From an uncultured Alphaproteobacteria bacterium (GTDB taxonomy: Bacteria; Pseudomonadota; Alphaproteobacteria; RF32; CAG-239), in NCBI GenBank assembly GCA_944391685.1, contig CALXUM010000003.1, positions 73,481 to 137,480 on the forward strand: a stretch of DNA of 64,000 nucleotides. The letters run 5' to 3'. The position numbers were made by a program, and so were the translations under genes. The notes below the pieces were generated by a model. That model had not been told where the DNA came from. It saw only the letters and a program-made list of their open reading frames with translations, and did not search any database. Shown here piece by piece: positions 1 to 9,338 of this stretch (within the stretch, counting starts at the first letter, position 1; each line of letters opens with the position of its first letter).

Positions 1-624
1 ATCAATCTCATCTGTCGGAATTGGAACAATGGTTTCCGGTGGAAATCCTTTCCATTCGTCATCTTCGTTTTCTTGGACTTCTTCCAGCGCATTTTCGCTA
101 AAAGAAAGAGGAGCGTTTTCTTGAGGCTCCTCTTGTATCTCCGTGTTGTCTTCCATTTCAACTTTCTCAAAGGTCATTCTCCCGTTTTCATCATAACCTA
201 TTTTATGGCACTCGGTTACGACTAACGATTCGTCAGGAACATCTAAGCCTTTTCGCTTAATGTATTTTTGGCAAAAATCTAAATATTGGGGGTTTATATC
301 ATCGGGTTGCTTTTTGGTTACAACATTTACAAATTGTTCTTCCACGTCATCAATTTTAATACTTTTGAACTTTTCTTGATATTCTTCAATCATTTTATCA
401 AACTGGCTAACTTGGTATTTGTTGTCGGTGTGGATATTAATATATGGGTCAAAACCTTCAAATTTCATAAAGAAATAATATTTATTATAAAAGTCATACA
501 AATAAACTTCTTTATTGTCGCCGGTATAAAAGGTTTCAAGAGATTTCTTTCTGGTTAATGTTGGTTTACGGTTGCGGAATAACATCTCTGTATATCCGGG
601 GTATTTTTTTACATCAAAAGTCAT
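1..624 (-). CDS. hypothetical protein, partial (runs off the left window edge)
   Basis: Manual translation of the minus strand from ATG at 622-624 (MTFDVKKYPGYTEMLFRNRKPTL...) gives 208 codons with no stop up to position 1. It starts 15 nt after the stop of the DUF3768-like gene. It is absent from the ORF track because it is truncated. No domain recognised; acidic C-terminal part. Confidence 0.5.
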   Translation of the reverse strand, partial: MTFDVKKYPGYTEMLFRNRKPTLTRKKSLETFYTGDNKEVYLYDFYNKYYFFMKFEGFDPYINIHTDNKYQVSQFDKMIEEYQEKFKSIKIDDVEEQFVNVVTKKQPDDINPQYLDFCQKYIKRKGLDVPDESLVVTECHKIGYDENGRMTFEKVEMEDNTEIQEEPQENAPLSFSENALEEVQENEDDEWKGFPPETIVPIPTDEID

Positions 625-639
625 TTTTGCTCTCCTTTA

Positions 640-1008
640 TTAATATTCAATCGGTAATAAAATTGTCAAAACTCTGGTGGTTATTGATTCATCTGCTGGA
701 TTTTCAGAGCCATAAGTCAAAGTTTTGTCATAATAATCAATTTTCCAATAAGCCTCTACATCACCTTCTTGGACAATTCCAAAGTCATGCTCTCCGTGAG
801 GGTCATTTTTGAAATTAAACTCATTAAATTTTTGCACCTTGCTTATAATTTTTGTTTTTGTCGCCCAATCCAAAGCGTCAATTCCGCAAGTCATGAGGAC
901 TTTACCACCGCAGAAGCTCTTTCTGAATCGGTCATTTAACTCAGCGATTTTTTGATGATTAGGAGATAAAAAGCTATCATCATATTCATCTTCTAAAACA
1001 CTTTCCAT
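640..1008 (-). CDS. DUF3768-like protein (family common on plasmids and integrative elements)
   Basis: 122 aa. 'NDRFRKSFCGGKVLMTCGI', 'NDPHGEHDFG', 'WKIDYYD' and 'TTRVLTILLPIEY' match my memory of the DUF3768 consensus. Confidence 0.6.
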   Translation of the reverse strand: MESVLEDEYDDSFLSPNHQKIAELNDRFRKSFCGGKVLMTCGIDALDWATKTKIISKVQKFNEFNFKNDPHGEHDFGIVQEGDVEAYWKIDYYDKTLTYGSENPADESITTRVLTILLPIEY

Positions 1009-1393
1009 TTTTCTAACTCCTTGATTTTATTAAATTATCCTTACATATTCTATACTGACATACCGTTGGTAAAACGCAAGTACTTTTTAGAAAAATATTA
1101 CTGTTTTTCAATAAGTTAGGCTGTTTTAAGGTAACAATTTATTGCGAAAATAGAATTTTTCATGTACAAAAGAATGAATTAATTATGGCTTTTTATTTTG
1201 ACAAAATTTAATTATTAATTAGTTTGTAGTTACAAGAAGTTAATATTTGCTGATTTGATTGCATTCAAGTTTAAATATTGTTTGATAGGCTTTTATTAGG
1301 TTTTCAAAAGTCAAAATTGCAGCGTGAGGTATTGACATTTAAGTCTTTTGTTAATAAGCTAATGCACATTCGTATAGCTAAAAAAATACCACA

Positions 1394-2392
1394 ATGAAAT
1401 ATATTGAAAGCAATAATCATATTGAAGAATTGTTTAAGAATCCTTGGTATCAAGTATTACTTAATACATTTAGTTCTGTTATCTCATATACTCATGACTT
1501 TTATAAAGAGAAAAAAATAAAACCTGTTATATTTCCAATAACAACAGGCTCTATTAGTTCTCCCATGGGGGAAGGAAGTGATTCGTTACCTGTTAAAGTC
1601 AATATTAGAGGTCAGGACGTGTTTCTTGCTGATTCTATGCAATTTAGCCTAGAAATAGGAACTCGCCTCACAGAGAAAGGGTGTTACTATATTATGCCCT
1701 CTTTTCGCGGAGAAGATGTCGACGAAAGACATTTAAATGAGTTTTTCCATTCAGAAGCAGAAATCAAGGGTAATTTAAATGATGTTATGAAAATTATTCA
1801 AGAATATATTTTGTACTTGAGCACAAGATTTCTTTCTGAATACAAAGATACTATAACGTCAATCTGCGGTGTTGAACATATTTTGGAGTTAGTCAACAAT
1901 CCTAAAAATCATTTTATTCAAATACCATATAAAACAGCATTAGAAGAACTTAAAAGTGTTAATGATGCTGTATCTAAAGATAATTTTGGTAATTTGATTA
2001 TTACAAAATATGGCGAAAAAGAATTAATTCGACGTTATGGAGATTTTTGTTGGTTAACAGAACTTCCAACCAAAATCGTTCCTTTCTATCAAGCTTCGGA
2101 AGAAAATGATTTTGAGACGGCAAAAGCTGCAGATTTACTCGCTGGAATTGGTGAGGTGGTTGGTTGCGGTGAGCGTTGTACTTCTGCACAAGATTTATTA
2201 AAATCGTTGGATTTCCATAAAGTATCTATTGATGATTATAAATGGTATTATGATATGAAAAATATCTGTCCATTACAAACGGCAGGTTTTGGTATGGGAA
2301 TTGAACGTTTTATACTTTGGTTATATCAACATGATGATATCAGAGACTGTATGCTACTCATCAGGAATCATAAACAACTGAACTTTCCATAA
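1394..2392 (+). CDS. class II aminoacyl-tRNA-synthetase-like catalytic core, AsnRS/AspRS type, no anticodon-binding domain
   Basis: 332 aa. Motif 2-like 'SFRGEDVDERHLNEFFHSEAE' and motif 3-like 'GFGMGIERFILWL'. 'LLAGIGEVVGCGER' parallels AsnRS 'LAPGIGEIIGGSQRE'. There is no N-terminal OB-fold segment. Confidence 0.75.
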   Translation: MKYIESNNHIEELFKNPWYQVLLNTFSSVISYTHDFYKEKKIKPVIFPITTGSISSPMGEGSDSLPVKVNIRGQDVFLADSMQFSLEIGTRLTEKGCYYIMPSFRGEDVDERHLNEFFHSEAEIKGNLNDVMKIIQEYILYLSTRFLSEYKDTITSICGVEHILELVNNPKNHFIQIPYKTALEELKSVNDAVSKDNFGNLIITKYGEKELIRRYGDFCWLTELPTKIVPFYQASEENDFETAKAADLLAGIGEVVGCGERCTSAQDLLKSLDFHKVSIDDYKWYYDMKNICPLQTAGFGMGIERFILWLYQHDDIRDCMLLIRNHKQLNFP

Positions 2393-2401
2393 GGAGTTAT
2401 C

Positions 2402-3232
2402 ATGGATTTAAGTAAATTAACAGAACAAGATATTATGAAAATGTCTTATAATGAGTTAATTGGATTGGTTAGAGAAACCAATCGAATTCCAGGAGGAGCA
2501 CAAACGGTTGCTTATATAGCATCTATGTGTTGTCTGCATGAAGGCAAGAGAGTATTAGATATAGGGACAAGTACAGGAAACACTGCAATAGATATTGCCT
2601 CTTTGTCAGGGGCAGAGGTGGTCGGCATTGACATTAATGAGGACAGCTTATCAGAAGCTAGAAAGCGGGCAAAAATTGTTGGTGTAGATTCAAAGACTAC
2701 TTTTGAATTAAATGATGCCATGAATCTATCCTTACCGGACAAGTTCTTTGATATGGTAATTTGCGGTAATGTTACATCGTTGCTTAGTGATAAAGAAAAA
2801 GCTCTTTCTGAGTATCAACGAGTTCTTCGAGACACCGGATTTTTAGTTGCGGTTCCCATGTATTATATAAAAAAGCCGTCAGATCAGTTAATCAAAGATG
2901 TTTCTAATGCAATTCAGGTCAACATTAAACCATTATACAAAGATTTTTGGATAGATTTCTTTACAAAAGGGGATTTTGAAATTTTTCTTGAGAAAGATTT
3001 TGCTTTTGATAACATAGACGAAGAAAAAATAAATCAATTTTGTGATTACATTTTATCAAGAGAACATCTAAAAGATTTAAATGAAAAAGCCGCCATCACC
3101 CTTAAAGAGGTTTATAGAAGATATATGCTACTATTTCGTTATAATTTATCGCATATGGGATATACAATCTTAATTTTAAGAAAATCACATAAAGAAATAG
3201 ATCCTGAATTATTTACAGCTCATGCTTTATAA
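2402..3232 (+). CDS. class I SAM-dependent methyltransferase
   Basis: 276 aa. Motif I 'VLDIGTSTGNTAIDIA', 'VVGIDIN', and upstream 'NRIPGG' typical of Methyltransf_11/25-type enzymes. Starts 9 nt after the aaRS-like gene, so probably co-transcribed. Confidence 0.75.
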   Translation: MDLSKLTEQDIMKMSYNELIGLVRETNRIPGGAQTVAYIASMCCLHEGKRVLDIGTSTGNTAIDIASLSGAEVVGIDINEDSLSEARKRAKIVGVDSKTTFELNDAMNLSLPDKFFDMVICGNVTSLLSDKEKALSEYQRVLRDTGFLVAVPMYYIKKPSDQLIKDVSNAIQVNIKPLYKDFWIDFFTKGDFEIFLEKDFAFDNIDEEKINQFCDYILSREHLKDLNEKAAITLKEVYRRYMLLFRYNLSHMGYTILILRKSHKEIDPELFTAHAL

Positions 3233-3244
3233 GAAAACTCCTCC

Positions 3245-3273
3245 AGAAAAAAGCCCTTGATAGGGCTTTTTTC
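3245..3273. terminator. bidirectional rho-independent terminator between convergent operons
   Basis: Hairpin AAGCCCT-tgat-AGGGCTT flanked by an A-run upstream and a T-run downstream. Confidence 0.6.
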
Positions 3274-3280
3274 TTAGGTG

Positions 3281-4153
3281 TTACTTTTTCTCAATAAGAA
3301 TCGTATAGCAAGCTGGTCGCACAGCCAGACGTTTATCAGCAAGAGTGAAGTTTTGTAAATCCATTTCTACCTCTTTTATAGTGGAGTTCCATTTATCTTC
3401 ACTACAATTATTAAATTCACCCTCAAGATGAAAGTTTAGAAATATTTCAAGAGCTTCTTCCATTGAGTCATAATATATTGGATCGCCAAGTAAGTGTTCA
3501 ATCTGATAATTAATTAGGTTTTGACTTTTTAAAATTTCTAAAGAATCTTTTATAGCCTCTAGAGATAAGCTTAATTTATTGCCTCGGTCATAAACGTACG
3601 ACTTTTTAGCCCACTGCTTCATTAGGATTTTTTGTTCATCAGACTGGGAATCGAAGTGAATGATAAAAAATTTACCATTATTGTTTAAGTTGTTTTCAAT
3701 AAATTTTTTTAGTATGTTATGAATATGTGATTTTCCCTGTTCTTCAGTTTTAAAGCGTTCAAGATGCTGGTGAACAGAATGAGAAAAACTCCATAAACTA
3801 AAACAAAAGTCATAATTTTCATTACAACTTTGCATATAATTGAGACTATCACTCAAAATTGCATTATGAATGGCATAGTTTTTACGAGAATAGTCTAACA
3901 TTTCAGTGCTCAAATCTAAAATATCTAAATCAGACTGAGGATATCTTTTTAAAAATTGTATAGTGCCGCGACCTGTTCCACAACCAAACTCCATCGCTTT
4001 GAAAGGAGTTGATATTTTTTTTAGAACGTTATCAAAAATTTCTATATCCGTTATTCCTGAAAAAGAATAAGTTTTAAGTAATTTTATATAGTAATCAGGA
4101 GGTAAATAATCTTCACGCTTCCTTTTCATCATAAAAGTTTTAAAGTTTTTCAT
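3281..4153 (-). CDS. class I SAM-dependent methyltransferase
   Basis: 290 aa. Motif I 'AMEFGCGTGRGTIQFL' and 'DILDLSTEML'. Last gene of the minus-strand three-gene operon. Confidence 0.7.
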   Translation of the reverse strand: MKNFKTFMMKRKREDYLPPDYYIKLLKTYSFSGITDIEIFDNVLKKISTPFKAMEFGCGTGRGTIQFLKRYPQSDLDILDLSTEMLDYSRKNYAIHNAILSDSLNYMQSCNENYDFCFSLWSFSHSVHQHLERFKTEEQGKSHIHNILKKFIENNLNNNGKFFIIHFDSQSDEQKILMKQWAKKSYVYDRGNKLSLSLEAIKDSLEILKSQNLINYQIEHLLGDPIYYDSMEEALEIFLNFHLEGEFNNCSEDKWNSTIKEVEMDLQNFTLADKRLAVRPACYTILIEKK

Positions 4154-4160
4154 TTTTCAC

Positions 4161-5183
4161 CTAAAATTTTAAGGATAAATCGCTAATATTTAATGTTGCT
4201 TCAATTCCATATGGCAAGGTCATCATTGGTTCAGTATGCCCAAAGTCCATACGAGAAATAATTGGTAGCTCAGGATGCCCAAACTCTTTGGCGACAATTC
4301 TCAAGGCCATTTCATCAAAAGAATCTAACATAGCCATATCATTAAAAAATTCTCCTGGGCGTCCAATCATTATTCCTTTAATTCTATCAAAACAACCCAT
4401 CAAACCGTAGTTTCTAAGACATTTCATAAAATAATTACTACCTAAGTTTATATCGGAGAGCTCTAAAAATAAAATAGCTCCATCAAAATCCGATTTATTA
4501 AAGAAATAATCTGTACCTTTTAACTGTTCTAAGCTTTCAATACATCCACCTATTAAATGACCGCGAACATTTTGACAACCTTGTAATAATTTAGGTGGAC
4601 AAGATTTGTTTAATTTTCTTTTGATTTTTTGATTATCAGGATTGCTCCAATCTAAGAATTCATTAGTCCATCCGGTTTGATTGGGATAAAATATATCGCA
4701 ACTATCATCACAAATCATTTTTTTTAAGCACTCATAAGAATATGGCTGCATTCCTCCATTTTCTGCAAAACCAGCCATAACAGTTGGTCCATAATAAGAA
4801 GTAATGCCAAGTTTATATAGAAAGACGTGAATAGCAGTTGCATCTGAGTATCCTAAAAAAATTTTAGGATTTTGTTTTATTTTTTCTATGTCTAGATATT
4901 TTAAAAATCTAACGCTATCATTACCACCAATATTACAAATAATTGCTTTTATATCCTTATCTTCTACCGCTTTCATAAAGTCTTCAGCTCGCCCTTCCGG
5001 ATGATCCTGTAACCATGCGTGAGATTTTAAGGAATTTGGCATTTCCACAACTTCAACATTAAATTTTTTTTTCAATTCTTCGATGCCCGCCTTATACCTT
5101 TCCGGAAAGATAGAGGCTGTTCCAAAAGAAATGGATATTGTTGCAACTTTATCACCTTTTTTTAATTTATTTGGTATAATCAT
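4161..5183 (-). CDS. S66 family serine peptidase (LD-carboxypeptidase / microcin C7 immunity MccF-like)
   Basis: 340 aa. 'RAEDFMKAVEDKDIKAIICNIGG', nucleophile motif 'GYSDATA', 'LFLELSD', and C-terminal 'DFGHTEP' (Ser/Glu/His triad context). The size matches the MccF-type subgroup. Confidence 0.75.
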   Translation of the reverse strand: MIIPNKLKKGDKVATISISFGTASIFPERYKAGIEELKKKFNVEVVEMPNSLKSHAWLQDHPEGRAEDFMKAVEDKDIKAIICNIGGNDSVRFLKYLDIEKIKQNPKIFLGYSDATAIHVFLYKLGITSYYGPTVMAGFAENGGMQPYSYECLKKMICDDSCDIFYPNQTGWTNEFLDWSNPDNQKIKRKLNKSCPPKLLQGCQNVRGHLIGGCIESLEQLKGTDYFFNKSDFDGAILFLELSDINLGSNYFMKCLRNYGLMGCFDRIKGIMIGRPGEFFNDMAMLDSFDEMALRIVAKEFGHPELPIISRMDFGHTEPMMTLPYGIEATLNISDLSLKF

Positions 5184-6573
5184 GAAATTTCTCCAAAATG
5201 GATGTATTTATCAAGCCCTGCTTATGCGTATTATTTTCTCTCTTTAAACTTGGAGCAACCGCGGAGATTGCTGTTGAAATTATAGCATACCTATTTTTTA
5301 TAGCATTTATATCGTAATTTTCTTTTGAGAATGCCTTCATATCATCAATAGCCCATTGCTCAATCGTCGATAAGACTTTATTGACTCTACCTTCTCTTAA
5401 GTGATTCTTAATTATTTGGTAATCTTCCGATTGAGGGGCAATATAATTATGGTTCTCAAAAACAGATAACCTATGAAAGTATTTTCTGAAATTTTTATAA
5501 GTCCCATTTAAAAATTGTTTATAACTATCTTCTGTTAATTTGTAATCTTTAATTTTATCAGGAACTCTTGAGGCGATAAACAGACGAACTTTACTCAATT
5601 CATCAGGAGTATAGCTGTCTTGCATTAAAATTGAGGCATCATTATCTTGTGTTAGGCAAAAACCACGAGCGGCAAATTTTATATTAAATTTTGATACATT
5701 AAAACCTTTATTGAAAATTGTTGGCATCATCAAAGAATAATAAGGTAAAATATTTTTGCCAAAATATGAAATCATTTTAACATTCTTAATATCATTAGCA
5801 ACATTTTCTGGTTTAGAAGACACTGCCAGCAATTTTGAAACCATAGAATCATACCATAAATAAATACTTTTTTCTTTATCTATTGGCATTTGTCTTCCAT
5901 AATTATTTCTTGTGAATGTCCAACAATCAAAATCTTTATTGTAAATATTTTGTATATTTGGAATAATATTTGATGTTGTATCCTGCTGTTCCACAAGATA
6001 TTTTAAAAAATCTGTCCTTGGAAGTAATAGGCCCCATTGCATATCCTGTCGTATTTCAACATTATTACTACCACATAATTTACAGACAAAATCTTCTTGT
6101 AATAGTTCTTCAATAGAAGAATGTTTTTTTAGTCGTCCCTCTTTTTGAGTTGTAATTTCACATTCTGATTTGGATAGGTCTTCATGGCAATCTTGACAAT
6201 AAAAAGAATAATCCTGCGTTTTAACTAATAAGCCATTTTTGTATAATTCACCTATAGAGTATTCAACAAATTCGTTCATTTTGGAATTATCAGAATCAAT
6301 ATATAGGTCAGGTTCAATGCCAAATTTAGATAAAGTTTGTCTGAACTCTTTTTTGCAATCAGTTATATATTGGGATTTGTTTTTAATGTGTCGCATAGCT
6401 CGGTATGCGTGCTTGCCATAAACATCAACTCCTGCAATCATTTGGCTTTCCTCACCAAATGATTTTAACATTTTATTTAATATGTCGGCAGGCAAATATG
6501 TGCTAGATATATTTGTATATCTAATTTTGGCAGGTATAAAAACATTTGCAGTTGTAATTAGATATTTAGACAT
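5167..6573 (-). CDS. methionyl-tRNA-synthetase-like paralogue with degenerate HIGH and KMSKS motifs
   Basis: 468 aa, collinear with the MetRS core: 'YLITTANVFIPAKIRYTNI' sits where 'PYANGxxHxGH' is expected, followed by a CxxC...CxxC knuckle region, 'IYLWYDS', and 'YFGKNILPYYSLMMPTIF'. 'DNDAS' occupies the KMSKS position. Overlaps the next gene by 17 nt. Confidence 0.65.
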   Translation of the reverse strand: MSKYLITTANVFIPAKIRYTNISSTYLPADILNKMLKSFGEESQMIAGVDVYGKHAYRAMRHIKNKSQYITDCKKEFRQTLSKFGIEPDLYIDSDNSKMNEFVEYSIGELYKNGLLVKTQDYSFYCQDCHEDLSKSECEITTQKEGRLKKHSSIEELLQEDFVCKLCGSNNVEIRQDMQWGLLLPRTDFLKYLVEQQDTTSNIIPNIQNIYNKDFDCWTFTRNNYGRQMPIDKEKSIYLWYDSMVSKLLAVSSKPENVANDIKNVKMISYFGKNILPYYSLMMPTIFNKGFNVSKFNIKFAARGFCLTQDNDASILMQDSYTPDELSKVRLFIASRVPDKIKDYKLTEDSYKQFLNGTYKNFRKYFHRLSVFENHNYIAPQSEDYQIIKNHLREGRVNKVLSTIEQWAIDDMKAFSKENYDINAIKNRYAIISTAISAVAPSLKRENNTHKQGLINTSILEKFHDYTK

Positions 6574-6731
6574 TTAAGCCTTAACTGTTTTGTTGTAAGA
6601 TACTCAAAAATACTATAATAAACCCAAAAAAGCAATAATAAAATTGCCAATAAAACCTCTGAATGACTTGATTTATTAAGATTTTACCGTTAGCATAACC
6701 TAGTTAATTTTATATTTAGAAGGTAGCAAAA

Positions 6732-8669
6732 ATGGCGGAAAATATTGAGATTAAAAAGGTTGACGGCAAAAGTTTGGATATTGAGGCGGCTGATAAAGAA
6801 AAATTAAAAGCCGTGTTTCCGCAATGTTTTAGTGAAGGCAAACTGGATATAGACAAGTTGTTGTCTTTGTGTGGTGAATATATAGACAACGATTTTGAGA
6901 AATACAAGTTTGAATGGAAAGGCAAATCCGAGTGCTATAAAATTGCCGGTAAGCGTTCAACAGGAACTCTCCGCCCATGTGTGCAAGAAAGTGTGGATTT
7001 TGAAAATACCAATAATCTGTATATTGAGGGCGATAATTTAGAAGTCTTGAAGCTCTTGCAAAATGCTTATTATCGTAAGGTTAAGATGATTTATATAGAT
7101 CCGCCGTATAATACCGGTAATGACTTTGTTTATGAAGATGACTTCAAAGATCCTTTGGCAAAATATAAGGAAATTACATCGCAAACAACCAAATCTAACC
7201 CCGAAACTATGGGCAGATATCACACAAACTGGTTGAATATGATGTATCCTAGATTGCGTTTGGCGGCTAATTTGCTTCGTGATGATGGTGTGATTTTTAT
7301 TTCTATTGATGATAATGAAGTTACAAATTTGAGAAAACTTTGTGATGAAGTCTTCGGTGAGGAGAATTTTGTTGGTTTGTTTACTATTCAAAGTAATCCT
7401 AGAGGCTCACAAAATAGTAAATTTTTATCTTATGTACATGAATATGTTTTAATGTATGCAAAAAGTATGGATTGCTTAGAAATAAAAGGCGTTGAAAAAG
7501 ATGAAGGTTCTATATCTGAATATTCATTAAAAGATGATAATGGTAGGATGTATCGTCTTTTAGGATTAAGAAAAAGAGGCGGTGCATGGAGAAAGGAGGA
7601 TAGACCTAATATGTTTTATCCTGTTTTTGTAAATCGCGAGACGCATGCAGTATCTTTAACAAAAATGAATGATGCGGATATTGAAGTGATTCCTCAAAGA
7701 CCTACTGGTGAGTTGAGTAGATGGACATGGGGAAAAGATAAATTTATTCAAGAAATAGATAAAGTTGTAGCCAAAAAAGTTAATAGAACTGGGGAGCCAG
7801 ATGCGTGGGATATATTTAGAAAAGATTTTATAGATAATGATAATGGTGAGATTAAAACTACAAAAATAAAAACTATTTGGATTGAAAAAGAAACAAATTA
7901 TCAAAATGCAAAAAATGAAATAAAAGAACTCTTTGGTAATTCAGAAATTTTTGATTTTCCTAAGCCGATTTATGTAGTAAGTAGACTTGCATCAATGCTG
8001 TTCACTGATGATACAGATATAATTCTAGACTTTTTCTCTGGTTCAGCAACCACAGCCCATGCTGTTATGCAAATGAATGCTGATGATCAAATAAAACGTC
8101 AATTTATTATGGTCCAACTTCCTGAATTATGCAACGAAAATTCACAAGGAGCGAAAGCCGGTTATAAAAATATTTGTGAAATCGGTAAAGAACGTATCCG
8201 CCGTGCTGGAGCTAAGATTAGAGCAGAACATCCCGAAGTTGATACGGGATTTAAGGTTTTCAAATTAGATACTTCAAATCTCGTAAAATGGGACGATACG
8301 CCGATTTTAGATAATAACACCCAAGATTTGTTTACTCGTATGAACAATATGGTTGAAAGTATCAAAACAGACCGAACGGAATTAGATGTTGTTTATGAGG
8401 TTATGTTAAAACTCGGTATTCCGGTTACTTACAAGATTTTTGAAACTCAAGTAAATGGCAGAAAGGTATATTCAATCGGTGAAGATGGTTTGGTTTTGGT
8501 CTGCTTGGATAAATCAAACGGCGGAATTACACCGGAAGACATAACTGCAATGTGTGATTTGGCTCCTGCCAAAATTGTTGCCGCTGAAAATGCTTTCAAA
8601 GATGACGTTGCCCTCTCTAACGCATATTATATCAGTAAAGACAAAGGTATTGAAATAGAGCTGTTGTAG
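6732..8669 (+). CDS. mod: type III restriction-modification DNA methyltransferase (Mod, N6-adenine)
   Basis: 645 aa. 'MIYIDPPYNTGNDFVYEDDF' (DPPY motif IV), 'FFSGSATTAHAVMQ' (motif I), and overall type III Mod layout. Confidence 0.9.
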   Translation: MAENIEIKKVDGKSLDIEAADKEKLKAVFPQCFSEGKLDIDKLLSLCGEYIDNDFEKYKFEWKGKSECYKIAGKRSTGTLRPCVQESVDFENTNNLYIEGDNLEVLKLLQNAYYRKVKMIYIDPPYNTGNDFVYEDDFKDPLAKYKEITSQTTKSNPETMGRYHTNWLNMMYPRLRLAANLLRDDGVIFISIDDNEVTNLRKLCDEVFGEENFVGLFTIQSNPRGSQNSKFLSYVHEYVLMYAKSMDCLEIKGVEKDEGSISEYSLKDDNGRMYRLLGLRKRGGAWRKEDRPNMFYPVFVNRETHAVSLTKMNDADIEVIPQRPTGELSRWTWGKDKFIQEIDKVVAKKVNRTGEPDAWDIFRKDFIDNDNGEIKTTKIKTIWIEKETNYQNAKNEIKELFGNSEIFDFPKPIYVVSRLASMLFTDDTDIILDFFSGSATTAHAVMQMNADDQIKRQFIMVQLPELCNENSQGAKAGYKNICEIGKERIRRAGAKIRAEHPEVDTGFKVFKLDTSNLVKWDDTPILDNNTQDLFTRMNNMVESIKTDRTELDVVYEVMLKLGIPVTYKIFETQVNGRKVYSIGEDGLVLVCLDKSNGGITPEDITAMCDLAPAKIVAAENAFKDDVALSNAYYISKDKGIEIELL

Positions 8670-8675
8670 GGGGAA

Positions 8676-9338
8676 ATGATGAAAAAACTAATAAAATACT
8701 TTTTAATTTTAATATTTCTAATTTTTATATTAAGTTTTTGGGGTGTTTCCGTAGATCCTATTTGGCTTTCTAATATAAAGTGTTCGTTTGAACAAAACAC
8801 TATTTCTTTTTTTGATTTTATTATAGATACAGGAAATTCAATTAGTTTAGTTTTTGCTGTTTTAATTTTATGTTGCTTATTTAAATCTGAGATCTCTACT
8901 TTGATAAAATCTATATCTCAAAAAATATCAGAAATAAAAGTTTTAAGAATTAATCAGTGGCAATTAGAAACACTAGAAAAAGTTGAAAAAGAAGCTGAAA
9001 AGATACCTCATAAAACGATAAAAATAAATAACAGACAGCCCATAGATAGGTTTATGCACTCATGGATTAACTTTGAAAAAATATTTATGAAAGGATTAAA
9101 TCAATTTAATATAAGAACTGCTCTCTATGAAAGGTACAAATCGGGATTATTTGTTAAAGATGAATATGAATTTTTACTATTTATACTTAGGACAAGAAAT
9201 CAAGTTTTTCACGGTGAAAATATCTTTATATCTGATGAAGTTTATTTACAAATGTCTGATTTTTTAGATAGTTTAAGCATTATTTTGGAATATAAATGGA
9301 AAAATGAAGATCAAAAACGAAAAATAAGCAAAAAATAA
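8676..9338 (+). CDS. membrane-anchored protein with putative C-terminal HEPN-like domain
   Basis: 220 aa. Hydrophobic segments 'LIKYFLILIFLIFILSFWGV' and 'ISLVFAVLILCCLF'. C-terminal helical part contains 'LRTRNQVFHGE' (R-N-x3-H, fits the HEPN Rx4-6H signature). Starts 7 nt after the mod stop. Confidence 0.45.
   Translation: MMKKLIKYFLILIFLIFILSFWGVSVDPIWLSNIKCSFEQNTISFFDFIIDTGNSISLVFAVLILCCLFKSEISTLIKSISQKISEIKVLRINQWQLETLEKVEKEAEKIPHKTIKINNRQPIDRFMHSWINFEKIFMKGLNQFNIRTALYERYKSGLFVKDEYEFLLFILRTRNQVFHGENIFISDEVYLQMSDFLDSLSIILEYKWKNEDQKRKISKK

Follow-up and report, generated by a model that had tools for sequence, protein, structure and literature searches.

Paralogues of aminoacyl-tRNA synthetases (aaRS) that act outside translation offer rare views of uncoupled half-reactions of these enzymes. 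Examples already known are the cyclodipeptide synthases (CDPSs), MshC and the hydrazine synthetases, and the methionyl-tRNA synthetase (MetRS) paralogue of Aravind 2010 is the cupin-linked hydrazine synthetase (PMC2922099; bioRxiv 10.1101/2025.08.22.671884). Hydrazine synthetases keep the HLGH and KFSTG motifs (147-HLGH-150 and 458-KFSTG-462 in PyrN) and adenylate their amino acid. Here we describe a MetRS-like gene in a stretch of 64,000 nucleotides (the window) from an uncultured alphaproteobacterium. Its product belongs to a MetRS-derived family that is apparently undescribed; a description of the family or of the gene cassette in which it resides was not found in full-text literature searches. 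The family differs from the hydrazine-synthetase ligases because the latter keep HLGH and KFSTG. In the window the cassette further encodes a class II synthetase-like core, a serine peptidase of family S66 and two methyltransferases. Our preferred reading, held tentatively and at somewhat less than an even chance, is that the MetRS-like protein does not adenylate but, as a transferase or a binding module, provides the amino-acid specificity of a mobile cassette; this cassette would make or handle an aaRS inhibitor that mimics an aminoacyl-adenylate, here a Glu-like one.

The gene and its product are as follows.

Positions 5167..6573, minus strand: MetRS-fold paralogue of 468 amino acids (aa). 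It is made up of a Rossmann core, a connective-peptide (CP) domain with one zinc knuckle, a stem-contact domain from which the KMSKS loop is missing, and a helical bundle.

The product matched Pfam tRNA-synt_1g (E 2.8e-27, residues 4-313), but with the NCBIfam metG models it scored only about 76 bits against cut-offs of 336-587, so that the cut-off of TIGR00398 (336) was not reached. The closest sequence match in the PDB was the P. abyssi MetRS (1rqg, E 1.8e-8), and hhalign aligned the profile of the protein with that of canonical MetRS over 441 columns at 100% probability. An AlphaFold2 model built from 49 homologues (mean pLDDT 90.5) found full-length MetRS cores as its top structural matches in Foldseek and VIA-align; on the T. 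thermophilus MetRS (1woy), residues 1-454 of the model superimposed on residues 2-471 of the chain with a Z score of 32. Since the sequence, profile and predicted-structure matches run over the full length, the four-domain MetRS architecture is retained: the model has the Rossmann fold, the CP domain with its single zinc knuckle, the stem-contact domain and, at the C-terminus, the helical bundle. The collinearity with MetRS claimed by the original prediction is thus borne out, as are two of its landmarks, namely the knuckle (C126, C129, C164 and C167) and the YLWYDS motif, whose W240 is the equivalent of E. coli W253. In the FGKNI sequence we recognize the GKD motif with D296 changed to Asn. 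The same genome has a housekeeping MetRS on another contig (a frame of 567 aa, E 3e-155).

The signatures for ATP binding were compared across the family by aligning 46 representatives, distant from each other and stemming from bacteria and DPANN archaea, with 15 canonical MetRS sequences; E. coli MetG served as the ruler for numbering. In the window protein R18-Y19-T20-N21 aligns with H21-L22-G23-H24, in agreement with the replacement of HIGH that had been noticed before. This is not a peculiarity of the window: the motif loss is common to all homologues surveyed. His is found in the H21 column of none of the 46 representatives (most often Asn, 21; Gly 6, Ser 5, Thr 4, Arg 2), the G23 column has Ala in 32, N17 of the ATP site is replaced by Pro, and D296, which binds the ribose, is Asn in 45 of 46. 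The fourth HIGH position (H24) has kept its His in 36 of 46; the window protein has Asn there. The KMSKS loop, the site of ATP and pyrophosphate, is gone in all 46 by a deletion of 5-6 residues, with the register confirmed by hhalign. Hence the proposal that 'DNDAS' stands in the place of KMSKS is right as to the loss but not as to its nature, as 'QDNDAS' fills a shortened loop and does not substitute KMSKS residue for residue. A similar split applies to the anticodon-binding helical domain, the fold of which is retained while the anticodon-reading Trp461 is not (D421 in the window protein).

Other parts of the active site have been preserved. The equivalents of W253, R233 and R356 are present in 46 of 46 representatives and that of D52, to which the alpha-amine of the amino acid binds, in 45; the knuckle residues C126, C164 and C167 are invariant and C129 nearly so. 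In addition, the family has a signature of its own, each element of which is conserved in at least 85% of the representatives and present in the window protein: F12 and P14 (PF-x-P), W218, S243-L/M244, N274 (GKN), R303-G304-F305 and the four-Cys knuckle. R303-G304-F305 stands in place of the KMSKS strand, just before the deleted loop. In a maximum-likelihood tree, calculated in quick rather than full search mode, a single branch (SH-aLRT 100) divides the family from canonical MetRS. One metagenomic representative of 515 aa, P0039, is the only one that keeps HLGH, lacks the KMSKS loop as well and branches nearest to canonical MetRS; it may be an evolutionary intermediate.

Judged by these residues, the MetRS-like protein would be unable to perform the adenylation half-reaction, the machinery that stabilizes ATP and pyrophosphate having been lost. 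Because all ATP- and pyrophosphate-gripping elements are missing while the aminoacyl pocket and the tRNA-contacting domains are retained, an adenylating role is unlikely, and it is very unlikely that the protein is an active MetRS, as had been suspected from the absence of both signatures. One could imagine that an amino acid is nevertheless activated with ATP in a cryptic way, by non-canonical residues such as R303 and K273, joined in most members by the fourth His of HIGH; the hydrazine synthetases and MshC are comparable ligases with canonical motifs. The family-invariant R-G-F just before the deleted loop, the preserved GKN motif, the His at position 24 in 36 of 46 members and the HLGH of P0039 speak for this. 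Yet H21, N17 and the whole KMSKS loop were lost together in 46 of 46, H24 is also gone from the clade of the window, the characterized MetRS-like ligases retain HLGH and KFSTG, and the same cassette contains an ATP-competent class II enzyme. We therefore consider a cryptic adenylating ligase very doubtful.

In two independent pairs of genes (the window copy and its relative at locus L012; L001 and L014) dN/dS was about 0.09, thus the protein is under strong constraint and shows no decay. On these grounds and because of the intact frame we reject the reading of the window copy as a pseudogene. Among proteins of 903-2575 aa, the search for fusions of the MetRS-like family yielded nothing informative, just canonical MetRS into which nuclease domains are inserted.

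The amino acid pocket was the most telling part of the analysis. In E. coli MetRS, the sulphur of methionine is read by Y260 and H301. In the window protein they are changed to K247 and Y279, and across the family these two positions define three types: Y/H in clade B, D/Q in a small group, and K/Y in clade A, which includes the window. The types co-vary with full-length aaRS genes in the neighbourhood. The Y/H pocket occurs with an adjacent full-length MetRS, with HIGH and KMSKS intact and of two MetRS types (L016, L017, L021, L023); the D/Q pocket with an adjacent LysRS that scores above its NCBIfam cut-off (L025/L034, one locus); and the K/Y pocket with adjacent GluRS-type genes (L033, L036 with two copies, and L037). 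The chemistry is complementary, as a Lys in the pocket is opposite an acidic side chain and an Asp in the pocket opposite a basic one, and this suggests that an aminoacyl moiety is still bound in the pocket, with a specificity that matches a particular synthetase. By its residues, the K247/Y279 type of the window predicts an acidic, Glu-like side chain. Purifying selection, the invariant amino-acid pocket and the tracking of the neighbouring aaRS by the pocket residues together show what appears to be a specific amino-acid-recognizing role. The re-tuned Met-specific residues, like the existence of a whole family and the location of the gene on the minus strand, go beyond the original prediction.

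Two roles are conceivable for the aaRS copies next to the cassette: they may be resistant targets, as they are in tiarin and other inhibitor clusters, or they may supply aminoacyl-tRNA (aa-tRNA). Marinimicrobium locisalis (G121) has two full-length MetRS genes (C21:95756-97384 and C12:104211-105788). One (562 aa) is in the cluster, with the MetRS-like gene about 1.7 kb upstream of it. The housekeeping MetRS (697 aa) lies elsewhere, so that the gene in the cluster is an additional copy, which would be expected of a resistance or supply gene. At L036, two GluRS-type genes (tRNA-synt_1c and Anticodon_2; 2256-4016 and 5952-7439) are found within 5 kb, directly upstream of the AsnRS-like, MetRS-like and S66 genes. 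Probably at least one of them is a dedicated copy.

Besides the MetRS-like gene, the cassette in the window consists of four genes:

Positions 4161..5183, minus strand: MccF-type S66 serine peptidase of 340 aa, with the Pfam S66 N and C domains.

Positions 3281..4153, minus strand: second methyltransferase dependent on S-adenosylmethionine (SAM), 290 aa, restricted to the clade of the window and L028.

Positions 2402..3232, plus strand: UbiE-type SAM methyltransferase of 276 aa, convergent to the MetRS-like and S66 genes.

Positions 1394..2392, plus strand: class II catalytic core of 332 aa, similar to AsnRS and archaeal AsnA, without anticodon-binding domain (NF005055, 227 bits, below the cut-off).

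Translational coupling of the MetRS-like gene to the peptidase had been proposed, and it is real: the S66 gene starts with an ATG at 5183, preceded by GGAG 8 nt upstream, and the TAA stop of the MetRS-like gene is at 5169-5167, so that the two overlap by 17 nt. The closest solved structure to the peptidase is the B. anthracis 'MccC family protein' BA3275 (5f1y, E 7e-77); matches to MccF entries reached about 1e-31, those to LdcA entries only 1e-4 to 1e-5, and the Ser113 and His316 columns are invariant in eight cassette homologues. A predicted complex of the two proteins scored 0.00, which counts neither way. The most conserved component of the cassette is the UbiE-type methyltransferase (E 1e-55 to 1e-103 between distant loci). 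In the AsnRS-like core, motif 2 (F104-R105-x-E107) and motif 3 (G298-F-G-x-G-x-E-R305) are invariant across loci and the ATP-binding motifs are all kept.

About 18 distinct cassette loci from metagenomes and genomes were compared. Carriers are metagenome-assembled genomes (MAGs) of gut Alphaproteobacteria, Woesearchaeota, Vibrio ostreicida, Marinimicrobium locisalis and metagenomic contigs. The S66 and UbiE-type methyltransferase genes accompany the MetRS-like gene on every contig that is long enough, with the exception of L033, which has no UbiE-type methyltransferase; their adjacency holds in 12 of 13 clustered loci in addition to the window. Most loci also have the AsnRS-like core. Although the arrangement of the genes differs between loci, the MetRS-like gene stays next to S66 and the AsnRS-like gene next to the methyltransferase. 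The AsnRS-like core of the window is 44-47% identical to clade-B cores and 23% to the cores of DPANN clade A (L017, L021, L032, L003 and L005 compared), whereas for the MetRS-like gene the DPANN clade-A genes are nearer relatives than those of clade B. Because the nearest relatives of the two genes differ, their sequences suggest that cassette components were reshuffled between lineages.

In the order to which the window belongs, the gene was found in only 3 of 121 genomes, one copy having an in-frame stop; thus the cassette is accessory and mobile. The copy with the stop, in an alphaproteobacterial MAG from the Hadza gut (L012:8001-9404, which is G019:C8:56749-58149), is 82-83% identical to that of the window and has TAG at codon 128, a His codon in the window. 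This locus lacks the AsnRS-like and UbiE-type methyltransferase genes and has a shortened second methyltransferase; it looks like a cassette under loss or an assembly error. The abundance of the family in genomes is under-sampled, as the scan of representative genomes, with a single peptide pattern, gave four loci.

Some hints link the cassette to aminoacyl-nucleotides: the MccF-like peptidase, a HIT gene at L037 and, at other loci, a MATE exporter and phosphoesterases of the SurE or DHH type. The L037 gene (9496-9930) lies between the AsnRS-like and MetRS-like genes and encodes a HIT-domain protein of 144 aa (Pfam E 1.2e-5) with a divergent histidine triad (…NHSHLKL…). HIT enzymes hydrolyse nucleoside phosphoramidates. 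SurE is found at L016 and DHH at L021 and L023.

From these observations we infer the chemistry, donor, acceptor and target as follows. The MetRS-like protein would be the module that sets the amino-acid specificity of the cassette, the residues at E. coli positions Y260 and H301 determining the amino acid. It would take an already activated aminoacyl group, from aa-tRNA or from the adenylate of its partner, and transfer it to a nucleotide-like or other acceptor, i.e. carry out the second aaRS half-reaction alone, or its reverse. The AsnRS/AsnA-like class II core, with its intact ATP motifs, is the likely ATP-using enzyme, and the product may be a small aminoacyl-nucleotide-like compound which mimics an aminoacyl-adenylate and is aimed at an aaRS. 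The co-translated S66 peptidase could detoxify the product in the producer or trim an intermediate. A more specific version, which we consider improbable as a whole, is that of a programmable specificity module for a class of aaRS inhibitors that would be new: the protein would catalyse the reversible transfer step only, condensing the aminoacyl group of aa-tRNA with a non-hydrolysable acceptor of the adenosine-phosphoramidate type (made by the AsnRS-like core and the MccF-like amidase, then methylated), and positions 260 and 301 would dictate whether a Met-, Glu- or Lys-adenylate is mimicked and which synthetase is hit.

Several points weigh against this interpretation. No activity, substrate or product is on record for any member of the family. 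The invariant R303 of the RGF element and the fourth HIGH His of 36 of the 46 representatives (Asn in the window) could support an unconventional nucleotide chemistry. The correlation of pocket and aaRS comprises eight loci which are partly non-independent phylogenetically, and the aaRS next to the cassette may be there to provide aa-tRNA, not as a resistant target. In the cassette of the window no extra aaRS, exporter or precursor peptide was found, and an antibiotic role is extrapolated from relatives. Finally, the product of cassettes embedded among YcaO and TfuA genes could be a peptide instead of a nucleotide conjugate.

The same pocket and the same peptidase can also be read as immunity. 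A catalytically dead MetRS fold could act as a sponge that binds an aminoacyl-adenylate mimic, be it that of the cassette or those of competitors, and either sequesters it or passes it on to the MccF-like hydrolase. Such a decoy would explain the loss of the ATP machinery with retention of the aminoacyl pocket, the fit of the pocket to the putative target aaRS, the tight coupling to the S66 gene in either gene order, and L033, where the MetRS-like gene and S66 occur without the AsnRS-like core and the UbiE-type methyltransferase. However, with the hydrolase and, in eight loci, a full-length aaRS copy also present, there would be three layers of immunity, and a stoichiometric sponge is expensive. 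Moreover, the MetRS-like protein is universal in the cassette whereas the resistant-type aaRS is optional, and a sponge for a small molecule has no need of the CP and helical tRNA-contacting domains, which are kept. The data fit a decoy no better than a biosynthetic transferase, and we regard the former as unlikely, if still worth serious consideration.

In clade-B gammaproteobacterial loci the cassette is part of a larger cluster with YcaO, TfuA, ThiF-rhodanese, ThiS and LuxC/E-like genes and a MATE exporter. Three clade-B loci have small acidic open reading frames (ORFs) of 47-63 aa (L016:4374-4517, L032:13942-14088 and L021:1869-2060) with a conserved C-terminus, GPETALFWQ in two cases and GPETALMW in one. 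The peptide is limited to these three loci, where it lies beside YcaO, TfuA, ThiF-rhodanese and ThiS, and is a candidate precursor or scaffold peptide of an undescribed thioamidated product. A 69-aa ORF at L003 (…LELWQ…) resembles it weakly, probably by chance. YcaO, TfuA, ThiF-rhodanese, ThiS and LuxC/E-like genes, the small peptide, HIT, SurE, DHH and MATE genes are all absent from the window, and no conserved small ORF that might be a precursor peptide was found in window positions 1-1450 or in clade-A loci.

Such peptides raise the possibility that the MetRS-like protein is a ligase of the pearlin type, adding a residue derived from aa-tRNA to the C-terminus of a scaffold peptide, where it would be modified (by methylation, and by thioamidation in some clusters) and then released by the S66 carboxypeptidase, with the aaRS as the supplier of aa-tRNA. 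Apart from the GPETAL(F/M)W peptides next to the YcaO-type genes, this is supported by S66 enzymes being carboxypeptidases and, as is partly general knowledge, by the use of aa-tRNA without HIGH and KMSKS by CDPS and PEARL enzymes. But the window and the other clade-A loci have no such peptide, the anticodon-reading Trp461 is lost, and the AsnRS-like core is left without explanation. We consider this quite unlikely.

The surroundings of the cassette in the window were inspected as well. It sits in an accessory island of high AT content, with a type III restriction-modification (R-M) and SNF2 system alongside; the GC content is about 31% over the first 10 kb (1-10 kb) against 36-40% further into the window. 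On the island side it is flanked by two genes for acidic proteins, both on the minus strand (1-624, at least 208 aa; 640-1008, 122 aa); neither product had a Pfam or NCBIfam match, and the larger one had no PADLOC hit either. A scan of positions 1000-6800 gave 36 promoter-like sites, no excess over the 31.3 in shuffled sequences, and no terminators. The location beside the R-M and SNF2 genes and the patchy distribution (3 of 121 genomes of the order) would fit an anti-phage function, in which the cassette is part of the adjacent defence island and poisons translation upon infection. PADLOC, however, had no specific match for the cassette proteins, the two methyltransferases giving generic methyltransferase-domain hits only, and in relatives the cassette is found outside of defence islands: next to rpoBC, within YcaO/TfuA peptide clusters or together with exporters. 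A role in defence is therefore very improbable.

If the preferred reading holds, the MetRS-like family would be the first full-size class Ia case without adenylation, with an intact class II adenylating core as its partner in the cassette. The pocket residues, set against the neighbouring MetRS, GluRS or LysRS, amount to a directly testable 'specificity code', and cultured carriers exist with Vibrio ostreicida and Marinimicrobium locisalis. The family of gene clusters is widely scattered and unexplored, and may encode antibiotics that mimic aminoacyl-adenylates. The existing public labels of the proteins, 'class I tRNA ligase family protein' or 'methionyl-tRNA synthetase', are misleading.

In comparison with canonical MetRS (MetG, TIGR00398), the window protein has the same four-domain architecture (Z 32 over about 410 residues), the zinc knuckle, the equivalents of D52, W253, R233 and R356 and the GK(D/N) motif. 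It differs in having no HIGH, no KMSKS loop and no Trp461, in the change of D296 to Asn and in the change of Y260/H301 to K/Y. With the tiarin (trifolitoxin-like) clusters (bioRxiv 10.64898/2025.12.02.691738) the cassette loci share a co-encoded aaRS copy that varies from cluster to cluster and there marks the target; however, the defining features of tiarins, the TfxB/TfxC dehydrogenases together with a precursor peptide, are both absent here.

Microcin C-type systems (MccB, MccF, MccH) are similar in the MccF-like S66 peptidase, the decoration by a methyltransferase and the logic of an aminoacyl-adenylate mimic. Further features of this kind occur in relatives only, namely a HIT-domain gene in one and ThiF-like genes in some clade-B loci. 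Unlike in microcin C, the adenylating enzyme of the cassette is the class II AsnRS-like core; neither MccB nor an MccA-like peptide ending in Asn was found in window positions 1-9000, and we know of no MetRS-like protein in mcc clusters.

The MetRS-like domain of the hydrazine synthetases (PyrN, Spb40, Tri28) is likewise a MetRS paralogue in secondary metabolism with its pocket re-tuned to non-Met substrates, and it is structurally similar (9l8v, TM 0.72). Hydrazine synthetases have a fused or adjacent cupin and a lysine N6-hydroxylase as neighbour, neither of which appeared in the gene and Pfam tables of the approximately 18 cassette loci. CDPSs, in turn, derive from class I aaRS. They too have lost HIGH and KMSKS, and the aminoacyl group that they use comes pre-activated, as aa-tRNA. 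They are derivatives of TyrRS/TrpRS of about 230 aa without CP or anticodon domains, whereas the window protein has a full-size MetRS fold; it does not have their compact class Ic (TyrRS/TrpRS-like) Rossmann domain with a Ser nucleophile, as the top structure and sequence matches are all full-length MetRS. By analogy, the CDPSs would still be the best mechanistic model for the MetRS-like protein.

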